Both the position numbers and the translations under genes were made by a program. Under the pieces are notes generated by a model. It worked only from the letters and a program-made list of their open reading frames with translations, searched no databases and was not told the DNA's origin. 64,000 nt of DNA from an uncultured virus (IMG/VR IMGVR_UViG_3300021255_000141). Its lineage: Duplodnaviria; Heunggongvirae; Uroviricota; Caudoviricetes. Location: IMG/VR virus record IMGVR_UViG_3300021255_000141; one strand, written 5' to 3'. Of the stretch, positions 1 to 39,997 are shown piece after piece (the first letter of the stretch is position 1; each line of letters starts with the position of its first letter).

Positions 1-438
1 ATTAAAGCACAGCGAGAGTATTTGAGAGTGCGTAGAAGCGAGGGTCAGGTATTCTGGTTGTGTAGTTGGCACGATGATTGTGCAGAGGACCACAAGGACT
101 GGCAGGGTAAGATATATGTTGATAGATTCTGGAGGAGTATGATAGTTGATGAGAGTGTCAGAAGCAGGGTTGCAGCGTATATTCGTAATCACGATACTAG
201 GTCCGTGCAGGATATTATGAGAGGTCCTGTATATATGACGACAAGACCGTATTGTAGACACAGATTTATTCCTGTTGATATAGATGAGGTTCTGTCAGGG
301 AGTGTTAATTCTATTAAAAAAAGCCACCGTGCTCAGGGTCACGTAGGTGGTAAGAGAGGCGACGGTAGACAGAGGTATTTAAAACTCAGGGATAAAATTC
401 ACACCGTGCTCGATATTAGTAATAAAAGGAGGATTTAA
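1..438 (+). CDS. Minor capsid / MuF-like head morphogenesis protein, C-terminal part (5' truncated by window)
   Basis: CSWHxxCAxxHxxWQGKIY...PYCRHRFIPV matches the SxH...HxxWQGKxY...NCRH pattern of Phage_min_cap2/MuF proteins; frame open from position 1. Confidence 0.7.
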   Translation: MKAQREYLRVRRSEGQVFWLCSWHDDCAEDHKDWQGKIYVDRFWRSMIVDESVRSRVAAYIRNHDTRSVQDIMRGPVYMTTRPYCRHRFIPVDIDEVLSGSVNSIKKSHRAQGHVGGKRGDGRQRYLKLRDKIHTVLDISNKRRI

Positions 439-16001: not shown

Positions 16002-16058
16002 AAAATATAATTGATTTATAATATAATTATAAAAGTTATAAAAAGGAGAACGCATAAA

Positions 16059-17066
16059 ATGAAATACAGTGAAGAATCAAGTAAAACTGGTGGTGCAACT
16101 AAGTACACAGGAAAATATAGTAAGAAAGATTTAGGTGGGTTAGGAAAATTTATTTCTGACGACAGTTTTGGTAATTATCAGGAATCTACAGGTGGAGGAA
16201 CACCACTTGATAAGGGTGAAAAATTAAAAGACCATCCTGAGGCTAAAAGGGTTATGCAGCCACGAGATAAAGAAGGAAAGTTCACATATAACTCAGTTAA
16301 TGGTAAGACACTTGCGTATGGACCATCGAGAGGAACAACAATTCCACCATTTTTACGTGGAAGCAATGCTAAATTAGTTCAACAAGGGACTATTTTCAAT
16401 GAAATGAGTGAAGATAAGCAGAAGGTTGCACAACAATGGATGGCGACTATTGGTATGACTAAGGAAGAATTAATTGAAAGATGTAAGTACTTTATGGAGA
16501 AGAAGAGTGCTAGAGGAGATTTAAGTAATAAAGATGTTGGTGCTAGATTTGCTGATATGGGAGAAGGTTCAGTTGCTAAGAAGACAACATTCTCACCATC
16601 TGCCACATATAAAGCAGGAGAAGGAAATACAGGAGCCGTTGCTAAGACAGCATCATCTGTTAGAGGTAATCTAAAGGCTATTACTGAAGCAGCGAAGAAA
16701 TATAAAGGTGGAGATATTCCAGTTAGTTGGTTAAAGAAAAAGACTACACCAGCACCTGTACCTGCTCAAAAACCTACACCTGCACCTACACCTACACCTG
16801 ATAATACTCAAACTGGTGGGAAAACTGGTTCAGGTTCAGGTAGTGATAATAATGTTAAACAACAACCAACAAAACAACTAAATTTTGATGATGCTAAGAA
16901 TAATCCAGAAAAATTTATTAATGATAACTTTGATGAATTAAATGAATTAAATGAATTAGCAGAAAGCAAAGGAATTTCTTTGGATGTTGATGATTTAGTT
17001 AAACAATTTGGAGAAGGAAAATATAAAGACTTCCAATCTATTAAGGATTTAATTAATAATTTATAG
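16059..17066 (+). CDS. Putative internal head protein with PRDxxGKF motif and Pro/Thr linker
   Basis: QPRDKEGKFT; PAPVPAQKPTPAPTPTP; AAGGAG RBS. Confidence 0.55.
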   Translation: MKYSEESSKTGGATKYTGKYSKKDLGGLGKFISDDSFGNYQESTGGGTPLDKGEKLKDHPEAKRVMQPRDKEGKFTYNSVNGKTLAYGPSRGTTIPPFLRGSNAKLVQQGTIFNEMSEDKQKVAQQWMATIGMTKEELIERCKYFMEKKSARGDLSNKDVGARFADMGEGSVAKKTTFSPSATYKAGEGNTGAVAKTASSVRGNLKAITEAAKKYKGGDIPVSWLKKKTTPAPVPAQKPTPAPTPTPDNTQTGGKTGSGSGSDNNVKQQPTKQLNFDDAKNNPEKFINDNFDELNELNELAESKGISLDVDDLVKQFGEGKYKDFQSIKDLINNL

Positions 17067-17080
17067 GAGGATTAATAAAA

Positions 17081-18037
17081 ATGGCGACAAAATCAGATAA
17101 TATTATAGGTAATCCCTGGCACAGTGAAGCCGACGGAAAATTTGTATCAGGTAATAAAAATGATTTGCCGTCATTTTTATCATTCAAAACTGATGATAAT
17201 ATCAACGGTATAAGTTTTTTAAAAAAAGGCGGAAGTGTAAAAAATAGTTTATTTGATAAGGCTAAAAAAGACCGCTGGTGGAAGTATAATAAAAAACGTA
17301 CAGTTGATGATGTTGTAAAAAACATTGGAGATTATTTTGATGACGAAATTCTTGGCGTACTTGAAAAATATGGTTGGAAAAGTTGCGATAGTATGAATGC
17401 TGGCAGAACCAGTCATTCATATATTAACAAGCCGCTGTTAAACGCGATTGCTAGTAAGCAATTCAGACCACTTAATATAATGGATACATCAAAATTTGAC
17501 AATTTATTCAATCCTATTAAAAGAGCGGTATTAGGTTCGTATTATAATAAAACAAACGCACAAAGAACACAAAGTTATTCTTTTTGTGAAAGAGGATTTA
17601 ATAATAAAGATATAATAAATTATTATTTAGGAAGGAAAAGTCAAGATTTAAAATTACCTGCAGGTGCATGTGGTAGTTGTATATATACAGCGTATGACGG
17701 ACAAACAAGTAAATCTTATGGTCGTTATCAGATGAAATTTTTAGTTGATAATTCTAAGGCTTACACTATGACTGATAGAGATGCTAGATATTATAAATCT
17801 CAACTTGAAATGAGAATGCCAGAAATAGAACAAGGAATTAGAAATAAACTTGCTAATAACCCTAAATATGCCAATTATACTGATAAAGTTATACATATAT
17901 TTAAAAATAATTTAAGAGATGAGACGTTTGTTCCGCTATTAATGGGAGCCGACATGGTATACGAAGAGGGAAGCGATTATGGTTTGATATTAAATTTTGG
18001 TGATGTATATACTAGAGAGGACTGGGGAGATATATGA
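17081..18037 (+). CDS. Putative effector 1: shared leader plus ADP-ribosyltransferase-like domain
   Basis: Leader IGNPWHSEADGKF; ERG...GACGSCIYTA...SYG...GAD...YGLILN resembles phage ART toxin domains. Confidence 0.5.
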   Translation: MATKSDNIIGNPWHSEADGKFVSGNKNDLPSFLSFKTDDNINGISFLKKGGSVKNSLFDKAKKDRWWKYNKKRTVDDVVKNIGDYFDDEILGVLEKYGWKSCDSMNAGRTSHSYINKPLLNAIASKQFRPLNIMDTSKFDNLFNPIKRAVLGSYYNKTNAQRTQSYSFCERGFNNKDIINYYLGRKSQDLKLPAGACGSCIYTAYDGQTSKSYGRYQMKFLVDNSKAYTMTDRDARYYKSQLEMRMPEIEQGIRNKLANNPKYANYTDKVIHIFKNNLRDETFVPLLMGADMVYEEGSDYGLILNFGDVYTREDWGDI

Positions 18038-18246
18038 TATTAGATAAAAATGATGCTTTAGATAGAAAAGTTATGAAAGTACTAGTAGAAACAGACCCTC
18101 ATATAGATATTGTTGAAGATATTGATATGTATTTAAAGGGTATGACTCCTACGTTATCAGAATTTACAGTTAAATTTCTAGAAAAGAATCCAAATATGAT
18201 AAGTAATTTAAGAGAACAAATAAGAATCGCTGAAGAGGAGGATTAA
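18034..18246 (+). CDS. Small acidic protein, putative immunity to effector 1
   Basis: ATGA overlap with effector stop. Confidence 0.45.
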   Translation: MILDKNDALDRKVMKVLVETDPHIDIVEDIDMYLKGMTPTLSEFTVKFLEKNPNMISNLREQIRIAEEED

Positions 18247-18249
18247 TAT

Positions 18250-19209
18250 ATGAAGGTTAAAAATAAAAACGACATAGGCAATCCATATCACAGTGATTAT
18301 GACGGTAAATTTACTAGTCCATTTGGTGAATATTTAAATGTAGACGAAGAAGATAACAGCCCTTTGAGTATGTTTAAAGGTGATATAAAAAAAAGAACTA
18401 GGGATTATTTACCAAAAATAAAAAATGACGGAACTCCACGTACATTTTTTAATGAGGAAAATATTGATAAACAGATTCAAATATTAAGTGGAGCAAGAGA
18501 AGAGTTCTCCGATATATATAACGAAATACTAACTAGGTCAAGCAATCAAACTATTTTAATTAACAGAAATGAAGATAGAAAAAAATGGGTTGACGAGGTT
18601 ATTGCTGAACAGGAAAAAATGCCTAAAAAGAACGAAAGAAAAGCAGTTATCGTGTTAGGATTACCTGCGAGCGGTAAATCTACATTTTCTGAACCTCTCA
18701 TGGATAAAATGGGTGCATATTTAATTGATGCAGACATTATGAAAGAAAAAATACCAGAATTTCAAGAAAATAATTTGAACGTTAGTGCTGTACACGAGGA
18801 AAGTGTTATGATGAACGGCATTATGCTTGATAAAATCATGGCACAAGGAGGAAATATAGTTATAGGTAAAATCGGAGGATTCCCTCCTGAAAGCATACAA
18901 GAAAACATTAAAAGACTTCACACTAATGGATATGATATTAAAGTAGTATTTAACGATATTCCATATGATGTGGCTATCGAAAGAAATATTAGTAGATTTA
19001 GAAATGGAAAAACTAAAAGATTGGTTCCAATTTATAATATCACTAATAATGATAACGATATTCATAGAAGTTACGATGAATTAATCGGAATGGACGAGGT
19101 ATCTGGCGGAATGGTATTTTCTAACGATGTTCCATTTGGTCAAAAACCTAAAACAATAAAAAAAGACAAAGATAGTGAGGAATTGGAGGAAATTTATGAA
19201 TGGATTTAA
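18250..19209 (+). CDS. Putative effector 2: shared leader plus zeta-toxin-like P-loop kinase
   Basis: Leader IGNPYHSDYDGKF; GLPASGKST, IDADxxK, VHEES, RxxxR...RxVP. Confidence 0.8.
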   Translation: MKVKNKNDIGNPYHSDYDGKFTSPFGEYLNVDEEDNSPLSMFKGDIKKRTRDYLPKIKNDGTPRTFFNEENIDKQIQILSGAREEFSDIYNEILTRSSNQTILINRNEDRKKWVDEVIAEQEKMPKKNERKAVIVLGLPASGKSTFSEPLMDKMGAYLIDADIMKEKIPEFQENNLNVSAVHEESVMMNGIMLDKIMAQGGNIVIGKIGGFPPESIQENIKRLHTNGYDIKVVFNDIPYDVAIERNISRFRNGKTKRLVPIYNITNNDNDIHRSYDELIGMDEVSGGMVFSNDVPFGQKPKTIKKDKDSEELEEIYEWI

Positions 19210-19390
19210 TAATAAAACAAATATAGAAATAGAAAAATACAGAGGAATTGCTCCGATTATGACTGAATATAAAGATTTGACTGAGGAGCAGAAAAGAAAA
19301 TTACCTCCTATTCCTAAAGGGTATGAAGGATATAAAAATCCACCATTTGCTTGGATGGGATATGGTTGGGATTATATAATGAGGGATTAG
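19196..19390 (+). CDS. Small protein, putative immunity to effector 2
   Basis: Overlaps effector end; GGAGGA RBS. Confidence 0.45.
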   Translation: MNGFNNKTNIEIEKYRGIAPIMTEYKDLTEEQKRKLPPIPKGYEGYKNPPFAWMGYGWDYIMRD

Positions 19391-19393
19391 TAT

Positions 19394-19537
19394 ATGATGA
19401 GTGAAGCAAATAATATCGAATTAACTACTGAAGTTAATAAAAATAAAGAGTTGGATAAAGTTGAATTATCTGATGAAGAAATTTGTAAATTATTTAATAT
19501 AAAAAGTGGTGATAAAGATGGCGGTAAAGTCAAATAA
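19394..19537 (+). CDS. 47-aa peptide with scaffold-like DEEICKLFNIK motif (not in ORF track)
   Basis: Translated by hand; GAGGG RBS. Confidence 0.6.
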   Translation: MMSEANNIELTTEVNKNKELDKVELSDEEICKLFNIKSGDKDGGKVK

Positions 19538-20510
19538 CGTTATTGGTAATAAATATCATGACGAGGAAACAGGAGAATTTACATCTGCAGATAGTGTAGG
19601 TATAGAAAACGAAAACGATAATGACATACCTAGTTTTTTAAAACCTAAAAACCAGGTAAATTCTGGTAGTACATCCTTGTTCGATAAAATAAAAGCACAA
19701 CGTAAAGCAGCACCTAAGAAAAAAATAACTGAAATGTCTGAAGAAGAGTTAGATACTGAAATAACAGAAAACATTAAAGTTATTAATGCTGTGGGAGCGA
19801 GCATTGTTGGGAATTTTCTTGATAATGATAAAAGAATAAAATGTGATACATTGAGAGGAATTGTTGACGTTATAAATAAATATAAGGTTAATATAAATGG
19901 CATGAAAATACATCAAACTACATCAATGTCATATAACGCTACTACAGAACAAGAATTTATTCCGATTATGAATTTATCAGCACTTATTAGTCCAAAAGTG
20001 GATTTTCAAATGAATGCAAATGTTAACATAAGGTTTAATATAGTAACTAGACAAGATTATGACGATTTATGTAACCACCAAAGAAATGTTATTGCTAGAA
20101 AACATAATTCTTATGTTAACGATGAATATTTAGCATCTTATGATAGTTATCACGAAATGGGTCATGTATTGATGTATAGTATGATTTATGATTATGTTAA
20201 GAGCAAAAACGCATATGGAAAGCCATTATTGACAGTTAATAATACAAAAACAAAAGATGGAATAAGAGTACAAATTGATAATGTTACAGACGGATTCGCT
20301 GAGAATTTTAGAAAAGAAGTATATAATGAATATATTAAAAATTACCCAGATGTAACATACCCACAATTCTGTAATAAGGTTTCTCTGTACGGAAGAACAA
20401 ATGTTCAAGAATGGTTTGCTGAAAAATTTACCCAATTAAATTGTGGTCAAGCAGATGATGTCAGTAAAGCGTTAGGCGTAATTATCGAAAGAAGGGGGTA
20501 TAAAAAATGA
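19518..20510 (+). CDS. Putative effector 3: shared leader plus zinc metallopeptidase
   Basis: Leader IGNKYHDEETGEF; HEMGH (HExxH) and SLYG...EWFAE. Confidence 0.8.
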   Translation: MAVKSNNVIGNKYHDEETGEFTSADSVGIENENDNDIPSFLKPKNQVNSGSTSLFDKIKAQRKAAPKKKITEMSEEELDTEITENIKVINAVGASIVGNFLDNDKRIKCDTLRGIVDVINKYKVNINGMKIHQTTSMSYNATTEQEFIPIMNLSALISPKVDFQMNANVNIRFNIVTRQDYDDLCNHQRNVIARKHNSYVNDEYLASYDSYHEMGHVLMYSMIYDYVKSKNAYGKPLLTVNNTKTKDGIRVQIDNVTDGFAENFRKEVYNEYIKNYPDVTYPQFCNKVSLYGRTNVQEWFAEKFTQLNCGQADDVSKALGVIIERRGYKK

Positions 20511-36113: not shown

Positions 36114-36677
36114 ATGAAACATAATCCTTTTCTTGTAATGATTATCACATCTTGGATATTACTAGTGTTAGCGATGATATGTAAATTATTTGGAGCAGAC
36201 TGGTTTATTGCAAGTAGTGATAATAAAACATTTATAAGACTATGTAATTATATCGATAATAATAAAATCTTGTATAACTTATTGCCAATATTATTTAATA
36301 TAACTACAACTAGTATATATTTCATGGCAATTCTTAAAGAAAATAGACCACATTTACTGTGGTTTATTATTTTGATAGTTTATGCAAGTGTAAAAGTGCT
36401 ATTTTATAACCAGGTGGTATTCTTCATCTTAGATATAATTTTAATGATAGGACTACCGCTCGCTTTAAAACCAAAATACTGGCTAATAATTATAATAGGT
36501 TTCTTATTGAATTTTATATTTCAATTGATATCTATGGCTACCAAAATGAATCATTATAAGATGTTTGATGATAATACCTTGGTTGTATTAATATTAAATG
36601 TTGATTATGTGATAATGTTAGTGTTATTTTGGTTATATCGCATCAAACCAAAGAAGGAGGAAAACGAAAATGGGTAG
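36114..36677 (+). CDS. Polytopic membrane protein (about 6 TM), putative peptide sensor
   Basis: Hydrophobicity; coupled to peptide and AgrB-like genes. Confidence 0.6.
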   Translation: MKHNPFLVMIITSWILLVLAMICKLFGADWFIASSDNKTFIRLCNYIDNNKILYNLLPILFNITTTSIYFMAILKENRPHLLWFIILIVYASVKVLFYNQVVFFILDIILMIGLPLALKPKYWLIIIIGFLLNFIFQLISMATKMNHYKMFDDNTLVVLILNVDYVIMLVLFWLYRIKPKKEENENG

Positions 36678-36828
36678 ATGGGGATTATTATTCTTCGGAG
36701 AAAAGGACAGAATCATAATTGACGAAATAGCAAAAATGCATGATTTACCAAAGGGTGTTGTTGAAAAATTCTATGCAAAAATGCTAAAGGAAGCAAAAGA
36801 TGAAGTTCAAACTAAAACTGAGGCTTAA
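36670..36828 (+). CDS. 52-aa peptide MGRWGLLFFGEKD..., candidate signalling propeptide (not in ORF track)
   Basis: Translated by hand; AAGGAGG RBS 9 nt upstream; overlaps both neighbours. Confidence 0.65.
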   Translation: MGRWGLLFFGEKDRIIIDEIAKMHDLPKGVVEKFYAKMLKEAKDEVQTKTEA

Positions 36829-37360
36829 ATTTGCGTTTTATCATGTATTAGGGTTTCTAACAGTTTTGACAATATTAGGTATAGCCTATTTATTCGATAA
36901 GGTGTTAGAAACCTTAACTATTATTGTACTGTTTTACATATATAGAACAATGTTTGTAAAACAATTTCATGCTAAGTCATTATACTTGTGTAGTTTTATA
37001 TCAATAATAGTATTTTCTCTTGTAATACAATTAGAGTTAAAATTTAATATTTCAATTATATTTTCAAGCGTACTAACATTTATGATAACTTATTTATCCT
37101 ATACATTAAAAGAGTTTTTAGATTTAAAATCATATTCAACTTTAAAAGTTCCTAATAAATGTATTGAGAATTTGAGCGAAGATGAAATGGTAAAGTTATT
37201 ACCTGATATTAGAGAAGATATAATACATATTGTATATGGATATTTACATAGAGAGGGTGTAACCTCAATAGGCTATGCATACGGTCAAGGCATAAGCGAA
37301 GCAACATTATTTAGATATGTGAAACAAGTTAAGAAGAAATATGAGAGTTTAGGAAAGTAA
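36800..37360 (+). CDS. AgrB-like membrane peptidase fused to C-terminal HTH
   Basis: YR...FHAKSLYLC (His-x6-Cys as in AgrB) within 4 TMs; GISEATLFRYVKQVKKK HTH. Confidence 0.65.
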   Translation: MKFKLKLRLKFAFYHVLGFLTVLTILGIAYLFDKVLETLTIIVLFYIYRTMFVKQFHAKSLYLCSFISIIVFSLVIQLELKFNISIIFSSVLTFMITYLSYTLKEFLDLKSYSTLKVPNKCIENLSEDEMVKLLPDIREDIIHIVYGYLHREGVTSIGYAYGQGISEATLFRYVKQVKKKYESLGK

Positions 37361-37383
37361 AAATCCTAAACTTTTTTTATTTT

Positions 37384-37416
37384 TGATAGTTAATGAAAGT
37401 CATGTGGTTATAGAAT
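37384..37416 (+). promoter_or_regulatory. Direct repeat TGAWAGT x2 in place of -35, with TAGAAT -10
   Basis: TGATAGT 37384-37390, TGAAAGT 37394-37400, TAGAAT 37411-37416. Confidence 0.45.
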
Positions 37417-37442: not shown

Positions 37443-37820
37443 ATGCCAAACTATAACAACAATTTTAATCCATATAATCCATATAACCCTTATACAATGC
37501 CACAAACTAAAATAAATCAATATTCATTTGTAAATGGCATTGAGGGTGCAAAGGCTTATCAAGTCATGCCAAATCAAAAAATGATGCTTCTTGATAGCGA
37601 TAGACCAATAGTATATATGAAAACATCTGATGAATACGGCAAGTCATCTCTAAGATATTTTAAATTAGTTGAGATTAAAGAAGATGATTTAAAGGTTCAA
37701 CAACCAGAAAACAGTTCTCAATACGCTTTAAAGGCTGATTTAGAGGCTTTGAAGCAAGAATTGATTAATTTATCGAATAAACTTGAAAAGCCTCTTAAAA
37801 GTGAAAATAAGGAGGAATAA
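37443..37820 (+). CDS. Hypothetical protein (VNGIEGAKAY...YMKTSD family)
   Basis: First gene of a six-gene operon recalled from gut phages. Confidence 0.75.
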   Translation: MPNYNNNFNPYNPYNPYTMPQTKINQYSFVNGIEGAKAYQVMPNQKMMLLDSDRPIVYMKTSDEYGKSSLRYFKLVEIKEDDLKVQQPENSSQYALKADLEALKQELINLSNKLEKPLKSENKEE

Positions 37821-37822
37821 CG

Positions 37823-38077
37823 ATGAGTAATCCATTTTATAGTGGTGGAAATTTTCCACAGATGAATATGAATTATATAAAACAGGTTTACGACATGCTA
37901 AGAAACAGCGGAAATCCTACGGCATTATTAAACCAAATGGCTCAGCAAAATCCTCAATTAGCACAGGTTGTGAACTTAATAAAGGCTAATAATGGTAATT
38001 ATGAACAAACTTTTAGAAATATGTGTCAGCAAAGAGGGATAGATGCTGATGAGTTTATAAGGAACCTTAATAGGTAA
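37823..38077 (+). CDS. Asn/Gln/Met-rich small protein
   Basis: NP..LL.QM.QQNPQ; AGGAGG RBS. Confidence 0.75.
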   Translation: MSNPFYSGGNFPQMNMNYIKQVYDMLRNSGNPTALLNQMAQQNPQLAQVVNLIKANNGNYEQTFRNMCQQRGIDADEFIRNLNR

Positions 38078-38137
38078 TAACACTAAATTCTAGATATAAG
38101 TGATATTATAAAACTTTTAAGAAAGGAGGGACCTACA

Positions 38138-38773
38138 ATGGACGGAACTGGAATTACTCCTGTTATGAATATGGGAGGAAATGACGGATTCGGTTTCGGA
38201 GGTGGAGGGCTTTGGCTTTTCGCTATACTTGCTTTGATGTGGGGAGGTAATGGATTCTTCGGTGGAAACAACGGAAATACTAACGCTATTCAAGCAGATG
38301 TAAATAGAGGATTTGATAATCAAAACCTTCAAGCACAAACAAGAGATATTCTTAGTGCTGTAACTTCTGGAACTGCTCAAACTATTGCTGCTTCTACTGC
38401 TAATGCAACTAATGCTATTAACGCAATTAAAGACGGTAATGCTTCTTTAATTAGAGAATTTGGAAATGTTGAAACTGCCTTAACATCTCTTGGAGGAAAC
38501 TTACAAAATTGCTGCTGCTCAATTCAAAGAAACATTGACCAAGTAAATTATAATCAAGCATTAAATACTGCTTCAATTAATTCTACTACTGTTGCTCAAA
38601 CTCAAAAGATTTTAGATGCATTAGCACAAAACAAGATTGATGCTTTACAAAATAAGGTAAATCAACTTGAATTACAAAATGCTGTTGCTGGTGTTGTTAG
38701 ATATCCATCTAGTATGACATATGCATACAACGCTAACCCATTCTGCGGATGTGGATGCAACGGTAATATTTAA
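38138..38773 (+). CDS. Gly-rich TM plus coiled-coil protein with CCC and CGCGC motifs
   Basis: GGGGLWLFAILALMWGG...NCCC...PFCGCGC. Confidence 0.8.
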   Translation: MDGTGITPVMNMGGNDGFGFGGGGLWLFAILALMWGGNGFFGGNNGNTNAIQADVNRGFDNQNLQAQTRDILSAVTSGTAQTIAASTANATNAINAIKDGNASLIREFGNVETALTSLGGNLQNCCCSIQRNIDQVNYNQALNTASINSTTVAQTQKILDALAQNKIDALQNKVNQLELQNAVAGVVRYPSSMTYAYNANPFCGCGCNGNI

Positions 38774-38867
38774 TTAAGCCAATTCGGCACGACACTATGT
38801 CATTAATATATATTAAGGAACTGGCTTGCGAGTTAGTTCCTTTTTATTTAAAGAAAGGAGAATAATT

Positions 38868-39278
38868 ATGTGTAATGATAGTTTAATATTTATGACAACT
38901 ACAACAAATGCCTCAGTTTTAGCGAATGGTGTAATACCTTTAACAACTATTCAACGAAGAAGAGGAAGAGCGTTACAAGATGGAACAAATAGTGTTACAT
39001 TAACTGCTCCTGGATATTATAAAGTAAATGCCTCAATTACATTTACAGCACCTGCTGCTGGAACTATAAGTGTAAAGGCACAAAAAAATAACGTTGATAT
39101 TCCAGGCATAACTGCTTCAACTATAGTCACAACTGCCACAACAGAGGTTAGAACTTTAAATGTTAGTGGAATTGTAAGAGTGTTCTGTAATGAAGGAATT
39201 GCTTCTTTTACACTTGTAAATAGTGGTTTAGCAATTACAGTTCAAAATGTATCTTTAGATATTGAATATCTTGGATAA
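38868..39278 (+). CDS. BclA-C/C1q-like beta-sandwich protein
   Basis: VIPL...SVTL..PGYYKV..SITF pattern. Confidence 0.55.
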   Translation: MCNDSLIFMTTTTNASVLANGVIPLTTIQRRRGRALQDGTNSVTLTAPGYYKVNASITFTAPAAGTISVKAQKNNVDIPGITASTIVTTATTEVRTLNVSGIVRVFCNEGIASFTLVNSGLAITVQNVSLDIEYLG

Positions 39279-39499
39279 TGGATAAAGAATTTACATTTCT
39301 TGATATATTAACTATATTATCTTTTCTTGTAGGTGTGGAAAATTTAAATTTGAATATAAAACAGATTGATAGTTTAGATAAGCACTTACAAGAACAAGAT
39401 AGTATATTAATTGAACAACAAAATAAAATGCTTGAAAAAATAATAAATCAAAACGAGGAAATAATATCCTTGTTGAAGGGAGGAAAAAATAATGCATAA
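39278..39499 (+). CDS. Small coiled-coil protein
   Basis: Coupled ORF. Confidence 0.7.
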   Translation: MDKEFTFLDILTILSFLVGVENLNLNIKQIDSLDKHLQEQDSILIEQQNKMLEKIINQNEEIISLLKGGKNNA

Positions 39500-39926
39500 A
39501 TATCTAGTTAAAGAGGCTACAGAGCAAGATTTAAGAGAGTTTGCTGACGGAGCCTTATCTATGATAGAACATACTAATGAAGGTCTTTATGATGAACTTG
39601 AGTTATTTTTATATAAAAAAATTCATGGATGTCATTTTACAGATTGGCTACTTGACAAGGCTGTTAGTAAAATGCAAAATGAAGACGGCTCATCTGGACC
39701 ACATTGGACTGTAGAACAGACAACTTCTGTGGCAAAACAAAATAACATCATGTTTAGTAATTTTAATGAATATGACTGGAATTATGTAATGAATATGATG
39801 TATTCAGATTATTATGGTGCAATTCCTAATGAAACATCTTATTATGTTAAACTTTCTAGAAAATTTTTAGAAGATAAAGACGCTGATACAGGAAAGGCAT
39901 TAAGATATTATCTTGCCATGAAGTAA
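39492..39926 (+). CDS. Hypothetical protein (HWTxEQT...MNMMYSDY family)
   Basis: Last gene of the operon; terminator 39936-39966. Confidence 0.75.
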   Translation: MHKYLVKEATEQDLREFADGALSMIEHTNEGLYDELELFLYKKIHGCHFTDWLLDKAVSKMQNEDGSSGPHWTVEQTTSVAKQNNIMFSNFNEYDWNYVMNMMYSDYYGAIPNETSYYVKLSRKFLEDKDADTGKALRYYLAMK

Positions 39927-39997
39927 AAAAATAAGACTGGTGATGTTTACATTGCCAGTTTTTTTTGTTATAATAAGGTATCAATGGTGGTGATATT

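Follow-up and report, generated by a model that had tools for sequence, protein, structure and literature searches.

The window, which is the whole 64-kb stretch of DNA analysed here, is the first part of a complete phage genome of 73,242 bp with direct terminal repeats, and the RNA and DNA sequencing runs containing this phage are gut and bovine gut metagenomes. Between long tail-type genes (assigned by eye) on the 5' side and a six-gene operon on the 3' side lie three overlapping genes on the plus strand, each in a different frame, at the coordinates where a sequence-only reading of this DNA had placed them. The first gene (36114-36677) encodes an orphan six-helix membrane protein of 187 aa, a candidate receptor or exporter partner of the third gene product. 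The second gene (36670-36828) encodes a 52-aa peptide that appears to be a leaderless, Cys-free AgrD-like precursor, consisting of the initiator Met, an eight-residue head, and a charged helical follower. The strong ribosome-binding site noted earlier for this peptide was found as AGGAGG at 36655-36660, 9 nt before the ATG. The third gene (36800-37360) encodes a 186-aa protein with a truncated AgrB domain (residues ~18-124) and a C-terminal three-helix HTH-type domain (residues ~127-183), as judged from a PF04647 match, conservation, and a structural model. A stop in the AgrB frame, ending at 36787, rules out that the window encodes one fused protein here.

The order of membrane protein, peptide, and AgrB was kept in homologous loci, and the peptide ORF showed pS higher than pN in all eight comparisons with homologs (e.g., 0.48 vs 0.11 and 0.69 vs 0.22). 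Conservation of the peptide ORF, on which the sequence-only reading had staked its case, is thus borne out, and the substitution pattern indicates that the peptide is under purifying selection. Because of this pattern and the conserved gene order, the triad is not a chance arrangement; it is real, conserved together, and found in RNA libraries. No match to PF02518 (HATPase_c), PF00072 (Response_reg), or PF04397 (LytTR) was found in the complete genome, with positive controls being detected, in agreement with the earlier statement that no kinase or response regulator accompanies these genes. No tyrosine or serine integrase match was found in the complete phage genome either, so a role in lysis-lysogeny is without support.

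The AgrB-HTH protein and its membrane partner

The 186-aa protein matched the Pfam AgrB family (PF04647) over residues 18-124 with an E value of 1.9e-8 and a score of 34.3 bits, above the curated cut-off of 23, in line with the proposed AgrB fold. The match spans profile positions 32-134 of 185, and the last AgrB helices are therefore missing (profile positions 135-185). According to both the profile match and the model, the full six-helix AgrB membrane domain is not present; four N-terminal hydrophobic helices are followed by a C-terminal three-helix bundle of ~60 residues. The search against Pfam gave no HTH match for this protein. The top Foldseek rows for the model were KorA and sigma region 4, with probabilities of up to 0.99 but E values of at least 0.49, none of them significant, and few of the 98 aligned relatives hit HTH families (Mga, 5; Sigma70_r4_2, 4; HTH_23, 3; GerE, 2). 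Of the earlier description of a 4-TM AgrB carrying an HTH, the AgrB match, the four helices, and the three-helix bundle stand, and the HTH assignment is weaker.

The protein carries the motif R49-x7-H57-x6-C64, with H57 encoded at 36968-36970 and C64 at 36989-36991. In the excerpt of PMC10196373, S. aureus AgrB requires R70, G75, H77, and C84, proteolysis depending on G75 and AIP formation on K129-131. The His-Cys spacing in our protein is the same as that of S. aureus H77/C84, whereas the Arg lies eight residues before the His rather than seven. The position of G75 is occupied by Gln or Thr and not by Gly, so that the canonical Gly-Gly-x-His context is not kept. H57 and C64, predicted to be conserved, were present in 29/29 close homologs (30 from the homolog search minus one fragment), and R49 was present in 25/29 and replaced in the other four. 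The His/Cys dyad was likewise found in 98/98 aligned relatives, five of which had been found by a pattern requiring the dyad, and R49 in 87/98; 93 of the 98 match AgrB at E ≤ 0.01. One fused gene (L091:4046-5026) apparently lacks the AgrB part after the catalytic His, including the Cys, and the repeat unit downstream of it differs.

The ~6-TM first protein seen earlier was modelled with confidence (pLDDT 88.8, pTM 0.81); the model has six long helices and, in addition, a short amphipathic one. In 40 membrane-protein homologs, K24, P115, and D164 were at least 90% conserved. The protein belongs to no Pfam or NCBIfam family, and fold searches gave no PDB Foldseek match and no named Atlas family. 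In a structural search (VIA), it reached a best Z of 5.8 at an rmsd of 4.4 over 119 aligned residues, a score common for helical bundles; the outcome of these family and fold searches lends no support to an AgrC-type sensor and would also be compatible with one. By Foldseek, the membrane model also matched a 429-aa viral protein named AgrB in BFVD (TM 0.83, E 5e-5).

Fusion of AgrB to the HTH is the usual form across proteins that are ~20% identical. A profile search gave 401 representatives at E ≤ 0.001; among the best 150 of these, 26 were longer than 330 aa, and 18 of the 26 carried the membrane-protein profile in their N-terminal half. In three fused genes whose DNA was available, the peptide is nested out of frame with its own ribosome site (L038:2581-2682, L091:4566-4694, L093:2245-2415), the nested peptide of L091 ending in a hydrophobic helix. 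Eight loci instead have peptide and membrane protein joined in one reading frame. Three loci (L097, L102, L108) encode an AgrB of ~120 aa without HTH, together with five-residue Gly heads and no downstream repeat; these are possibly minimal pentapeptide cyclases. L023 has a close homolog of the HTH as a separate gene ahead of the same operon, and a matching site is present there too. The sequence-only reading had proposed a one-component switch in which the AgrB fold directly controls a DNA-binding domain. The single polypeptides of membrane protein, AgrB, and HTH in relatives, a repeat-promoter that tracks the HTH subtype, and the top genome-wide score of the site noted earlier at 37384 (see below) are in line with such a switch. 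Direct control of the HTH by AgrB is not supported, the HTH homolog at L023 being a gene of its own, and nothing was found for or against eavesdropping on the host. The membrane gene at L002:5294-5878 is split into pieces of 35 aa and 118 aa and is intact in the near-identical L010, pointing to a frameshift or an assembly error.

A tblastn search with the AgrB-HTH protein of the window matched no cultured phage, so that an isolated host is lacking. MAG contigs carry four relatives; the labels of these contigs are Christensenellaceae, Eubacteriales (two), and Gastranaerophilales, three of the four being Clostridia-type. Since 17 of the 29 inner branches of the AgrB tree were left open, no order of events is claimed.

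A family of leaderless peptides with Gly2

The head of the peptide consists of Gly2-Phe9 (36673-36696) and is followed by a charged helical follower of 43 residues. To compare heads, loci were gathered via AgrB or the downstream operon and never via the peptide. With repeated contigs, heads that were nearly identical, and chance pattern hits (5/24 and 12/16 in two scans) removed, 34 distinct heads from 35 loci remained for counting. Gly2 occurred in 28/34 distinct heads, compared with 4/237 other ribosome-site ORFs of the same loci. When two second-ATG starts were left aside, the count was 26/34, and the background among small-residue ORFs was 4/77. Fisher p-values for such counts overstate the significance, since related loci enter them as if independent.

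Of the 28 Gly heads, 24 had F, Y, W, or M at position 9, followed by a polar tail. Within these 24 heads, position 10 was Gly in 16 and position 11 charged in 20, positions 3-7 were hypervariable, and Gly and Pro were enriched in the middle of the head. The remaining four Gly heads have five or seven residues, and six heads have no Gly2. Two close relatives without Gly2 have a head one residue shorter, so that the head stays eight residues long when the Met is counted. The head rule appears in each of five AgrB clades with strong support, the tree being otherwise poorly resolved. In the follower, I20, K22, V31, and Y35 were invariant in 11 close homologs.

The peptide was described earlier as having neither the usual leader nor a ring Cys, and this is correct: the core starts at residue 2, Gly occupies the ring-Cys position, and there is no Cys anywhere in the peptide. 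Only 2/34 heads have a long N-terminal part, and the ~24-residue amphipathic AgrD leader is absent in the window. Within the eight-residue heads, Cys at the ring position (position 5, for a five-residue thiolactone) was found in 1/24 and Ser in 1/24. An AgrD-like eight-residue core with a charged tail beside agrB is present, and the peptide is adjacent or nested in every true AgrB locus of two scans (19 and 4 loci). Judging from the aligned heads, the lack of a leader and a Cys seems to be the norm for this family and not a flaw of one member. Cys-bearing heads do occur in the same family (L005, L082, L099, L129), with or without a long N-terminal part. The L129 head has both Gly2 and Cys5 and is a possible intermediate between the thiolactone and head-to-tail types; it lies on a 4.9-kb contig that is labelled Gastranaerophilales and may be mis-binned.

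For comparison, the excerpt of PMC10482373 gives an AIP core length of 7-9 residues and a staphylococcal AgrD follower of 14-15 residues. Taken together, the hypervariable positions 3-7, the Gly2 rule, and the boundary at position 9 lead us to infer a leaderless AgrD whose ring would be closed by Gly. The four Gly heads of five or seven residues and the six heads lacking Gly2 count against this reading.

Repeat-promoters, downstream operon, and RNA-library cover

A terminator-like hairpin with a U-tract (37345-37379, plus strand; -12.3 kcal/mol for 37340-37385) lies over the stop of the AgrB-HTH gene, and similar hairpins were seen by eye in most close loci. After the hairpin, the close loci share the consensus TGAnAG-N4-TGAnAG, 11 nt, and a TAnnnT box, with the same geometry in 10 close loci. 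In the window, this downstream repeat-promoter reads TGATAG-N4-TGAAAG, 11 nt, TAGAAT (37383-37416, plus strand) and is a predicted HTH site straddling the -35 position. Repeats straddling the -35 position are the geometry of lambda CII-type activators. An internal repeat-promoter, TGATAG-N4-TGCAAG, 11 nt, TATTTT (36372-36405, plus strand), lies within the membrane gene, 298 nt 5' of the peptide, and is the predicted driver of the peptide RNA. A repeat matrix was trained on the other loci, with the window left out, and both strands of the genome were scored. The two highest-scoring sites genome-wide were those at 37383 (19.8) and 36372 (16.2), so that the promoter placed at 37384 by the sequence-only reading is the best-scoring repeat site in the whole genome. 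The third-best site (15.3) has no -10 box and lies in the terminal repeat, at window positions 12-45 and also at genome position 73147. Both repeat-promoters were missed by a generic sigma-70 scan, which gave 29 sites against 30 expected.

Clear copies of the internal site are confined to the closest clade (L001, L002, L010, L012); in L002, L010, and L012 the site lies ~300 nt upstream of the start codon of the peptide. L004 has a weak version, and none is present in L003, L013, L015, L016, L017, and L094. Over codons 80-99 of the membrane gene, 13/16 were identical in three sequences, compared with 47/99 gene-wide, and one Leu codon there has a usage of 7%.

In 30 held-out loci, matrix scores of at least 12 were reached only at the two most window-like HTHs (L017, 18.2; the stand-alone L023, 12.0). 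The other 28 scored 5.5 or less, including L091 with a related or intermediate HTH (2.1). Repeats with a period of 10 or 11 after the gene were found in 15/34 loci compared with 1/34 controls, the units differing between subfamilies, and the repeat test was not significant in the other 19/34, including the window taken alone (p 0.11). None of the three HTH-less loci has a downstream repeat. From these sequence comparisons, the downstream repeat-promoter is seen to track the HTH subtype. L017 has four tandem repeat units after its AgrB-HTH gene (L017:4556-4600) instead of two.

The operon behind this promoter (37443-39926, plus strand) comprises six genes, which include Gln/Asn-rich, Gly-rich, BclA_C-like, and DUF7841 products (ORFs with Pfam/PHROG assignments), and ends at a terminator at 39933-39962. 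It is common in gut phages and is the predicted regulatory target of the HTH; a literature search on its function gave nothing relevant. An AgrB gene lay within 4 kb in 9/71 operon loci and not in the other 62, with some flanks cut short. An RNA contig of a related strain covers 37458-39892 with one gene skipped. The related strain in runs X3-X5 is without most of a 73-aa operon gene (window 39278-39436).

RNA cover of the triad was read from contigs of two or three studies, in which strand, true start, and level are unread and DNA carry-over is possible. A discrete RNA-library contig (36421-36824) covers the peptide gene together with the 3' portion of the membrane gene. Runs X3, X4, and X5 (one study, related strain) gave contigs from 36421, 36423, and 36422, respectively, to 36824, with adapter at 36824 in X4 and X5, and these contigs start 16-18 nt after the internal -10 box. 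Runs X2 (contig 36446-36807) and X7 (contig 36472-36807) have several contig ends in common and may not be independent. Across 20 kb, the RNA contig cover was patchy and not even, and uncovered parts and contig depths were excluded as evidence. The RNA piece lying just after the internal repeat-promoter and covering the peptide is suggestive of autoinduction.

A possible kinase-free circuit and its alternatives

We propose that the triad may form a kinase-free autoinduction circuit. MetAP removes Met before Gly, Ala, Ser, Thr, Pro, and Val, and removal of Met from the peptide would free the amine of Gly2. The His/Cys pair of AgrB would cut the 52-residue peptide after Phe9, and cleavage after residue 9 is probable. 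The Gly2 amine would then resolve the acyl-enzyme into an all-amide, eight-residue, head-to-tail ring, a closure to which we give slightly better than even chances. The six-helix partner would sense or export the ring peptide. That it is a receptor coupling the signal to the HTH is an even call, the fusion and the conserved charged residues being the sole basis of this role. The fused HTH would activate both repeat-promoters; going by the site patterns, it likely acts at the repeats, and it probably activates rather than represses. The internal promoter would then re-make the peptide in positive feedback, and the downstream promoter would drive the six-gene operon. The whole chain, from an AgrB-made ring through a sensing or exporting partner to an HTH driving peptide and operon, falls just short of an even chance. 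Counting against it are the truncation of the AgrB domain together with the lack of Gly at the G75 position and the Arg-His spacing of eight, the scarcity of AgrB among operon loci together with an HTH able to stand alone, and the restriction of the internal site to one clade.

The same genes could also work as an intracellular proteolysis switch, in which the helical follower, which the aromatic head would hold at the membrane, is the functional part; cleavage by AgrB would set this follower free or degrade it and thereby alter HTH activity, with no diffusible signal. In the close clade, conservation of the follower (I20, K22, V31, Y35) equals or exceeds that of the head, the 43 follower residues far exceed those of staphylococcal AgrD, and in-frame fusion of peptide and membrane protein in eight loci would suit such a switch. 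However, followers differ fully between clades (coiled, acidic, or hydrophobic helix) and the Gly2/eight-residue rule persists, positions 3-7 of the head look like specificity variants, and L096 has a window-type follower but a different HTH. The four in-frame fusions examined also keep a purine-rich ribosome site before an internal Met-Gly, and we consider the proteolysis switch unlikely. The circuit might alternatively be the same except that the acyl-enzyme is hydrolysed, giving a linear octapeptide signal in which Gly2 serves Met removal or receptor fit. The window head has no ring Cys, Ser, or Thr, position 5 is Cys in only one of the 24 eight-residue heads, and AgrB is truncated where S. 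aureus mutants described in the excerpted source keep peptidase activity and lose AIP formation. Met removal would also allow Ala, Ser, Thr, Pro, and Val, however, and the excess of Gly (28/34 vs a background of 4/77), the fixed head length, and the mid-head Gly and Pro fit ring closure, so that a linear product is improbable.

The usual occurrence of the AgrB-HTH fusion across highly diverged proteins and the HTH-type site 5' of the peptide in the close clade both speak against two modules joined for economy, in which AgrB, peptide, and membrane protein would make a signal directed at agr receptors of the host or of rivals, with the HTH regulating the operon independently of the peptide. Because this HTH-type site recurs upstream of the peptide, the HTH is tied to peptide expression. 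The lone HTH homolog with its matching site before the same operon at L023, the HTH-less AgrB with five-residue Gly heads, the 62/71 operon loci without AgrB, and the existence of phage agr genes without a response regulator (PMC3901668, excerpt) do fit separable modules, and we regard this arrangement as a rather doubtful one. A non-catalytic AgrB, whose His/Cys would bind uncut peptide or metal within a membrane-tethered sensor complex of the three proteins, is very improbable. The Gly-Gly-x-His context, the last helices, and the exact Arg spacing are indeed not kept, but 29/29 unbiased homologs have both the His and the Cys, and the sharp change from hydrophobic to small and charged residues at positions 9/10/11 is as at an AgrD cut site.

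Returning to the autoinduction circuit, a more far-reaching form of it, which we offer tentatively and as somewhat unlikely to hold in full, is that the cut-down AgrB is a direct head-to-tail macrocyclase acting on leaderless, Gly-initiated octapeptides in gut and rumen phages. The orphan six-helix receptor would relay the signal through the membrane to the HTH that the enzyme itself carries, and the hypervariable rings would serve as per-phage channels, in a system distinct from arbitrium and a new class of minimal peptide-cyclising enzyme. No precedent for direct amine closure by AgrB was found in the open literature. S. aureus AgrB could not process a Ser precursor (PMC10482373, excerpt), and the excerpt of PMC11953309 predicts AIPs through Cys or Ser only. 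Clostridial homodetic AIPs arise via a Cys thiolactone and an S-to-N shift after leader removal (PMC8251862, excerpt). They share with the predicted product the principle that all-amide rings can serve as agr signals, whereas here closure would occur directly by the N-terminal Gly, in a ring of eight residues (five in the HTH-less subfamily).

Like staphylococcal and clostridial agr, the locus has an AgrB-family His-x6-Cys with an upstream Arg, an adjacent short peptide with a hydrophobic eight-residue core, charged follower, and hypervariable middle, and an apparent positive feedback on peptide expression. In contrast to agr, its AgrB is reduced to about four helices and carries an HTH, the genome has no gene for a kinase, receiver, or LytTR protein, the peptide has no leader and no ring Cys/Ser, the gene order is membrane protein-peptide-AgrB, and the six-helix partner is an orphan. 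By these sequence features, the locus would work like agr and is not a member of the four-gene system, the peptide failing two of three AgrD features.

Among phages, the agr3 locus of C. difficile phage phiCDHM1 likewise has transcribed, phage-borne agrB and agrD and no response regulator (PMC3901668, excerpt). It has a 453-aa AgrC with HATPase_c and a 197-aa AgrB, taken from the host, whereas the present locus has no kinase and an AgrB with its own DNA-binding domain. The Brevibacillus phages Davies, Emery, and Abouo have, in the excerpt of the same source, a kinase-less cassette that comprises AgrB, a short peptide, and membrane proteins. In Davies, the peptide is also Cys-free, and Davies gp46 matches the AgrB profile of the present family (E 5e-15). 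Davies differs in having a full-length AgrB (172 aa) without HTH and a peptide that follows AgrB and has a long N-terminal part, and the next gene looks LytTR-like by eye. The two Davies membrane proteins were rejected as homologs of the membrane protein (E 6 against its profile).

No AgrB-HTH fusion or Gly-closed AgrB product was found in searches of the open literature, and the module has apparently not been described in print. If the proposed circuit is true, it would be a second phage-encoded peptide communication system and would extend AgrB chemistry to a setting without leader, ring cysteine, second protease, or kinase. The minimal AgrB needs for cyclisation and kinase-free sensing from membrane to DNA could then be tested in a 1.3-kb unit. 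It would also open the regulation of a widespread gut-phage operon to study for the first time and supply a small candidate macrocyclase making eight-residue rings. The cut site, the product mass, and the two promoter positions are specific predictions.

Elsewhere in the window, consecutive genes at 16011-20510 share an N-terminal Gly-Asn-x-aromatic-His motif, which is clear in the genes starting at 17081, 18250, and 19506, and differ in their C-terminal parts. One gene of this set (18250-19209) matches Zeta_toxin (E 2e-13), and from the shared motif the set looks like cargo proteins with a common targeting tag.
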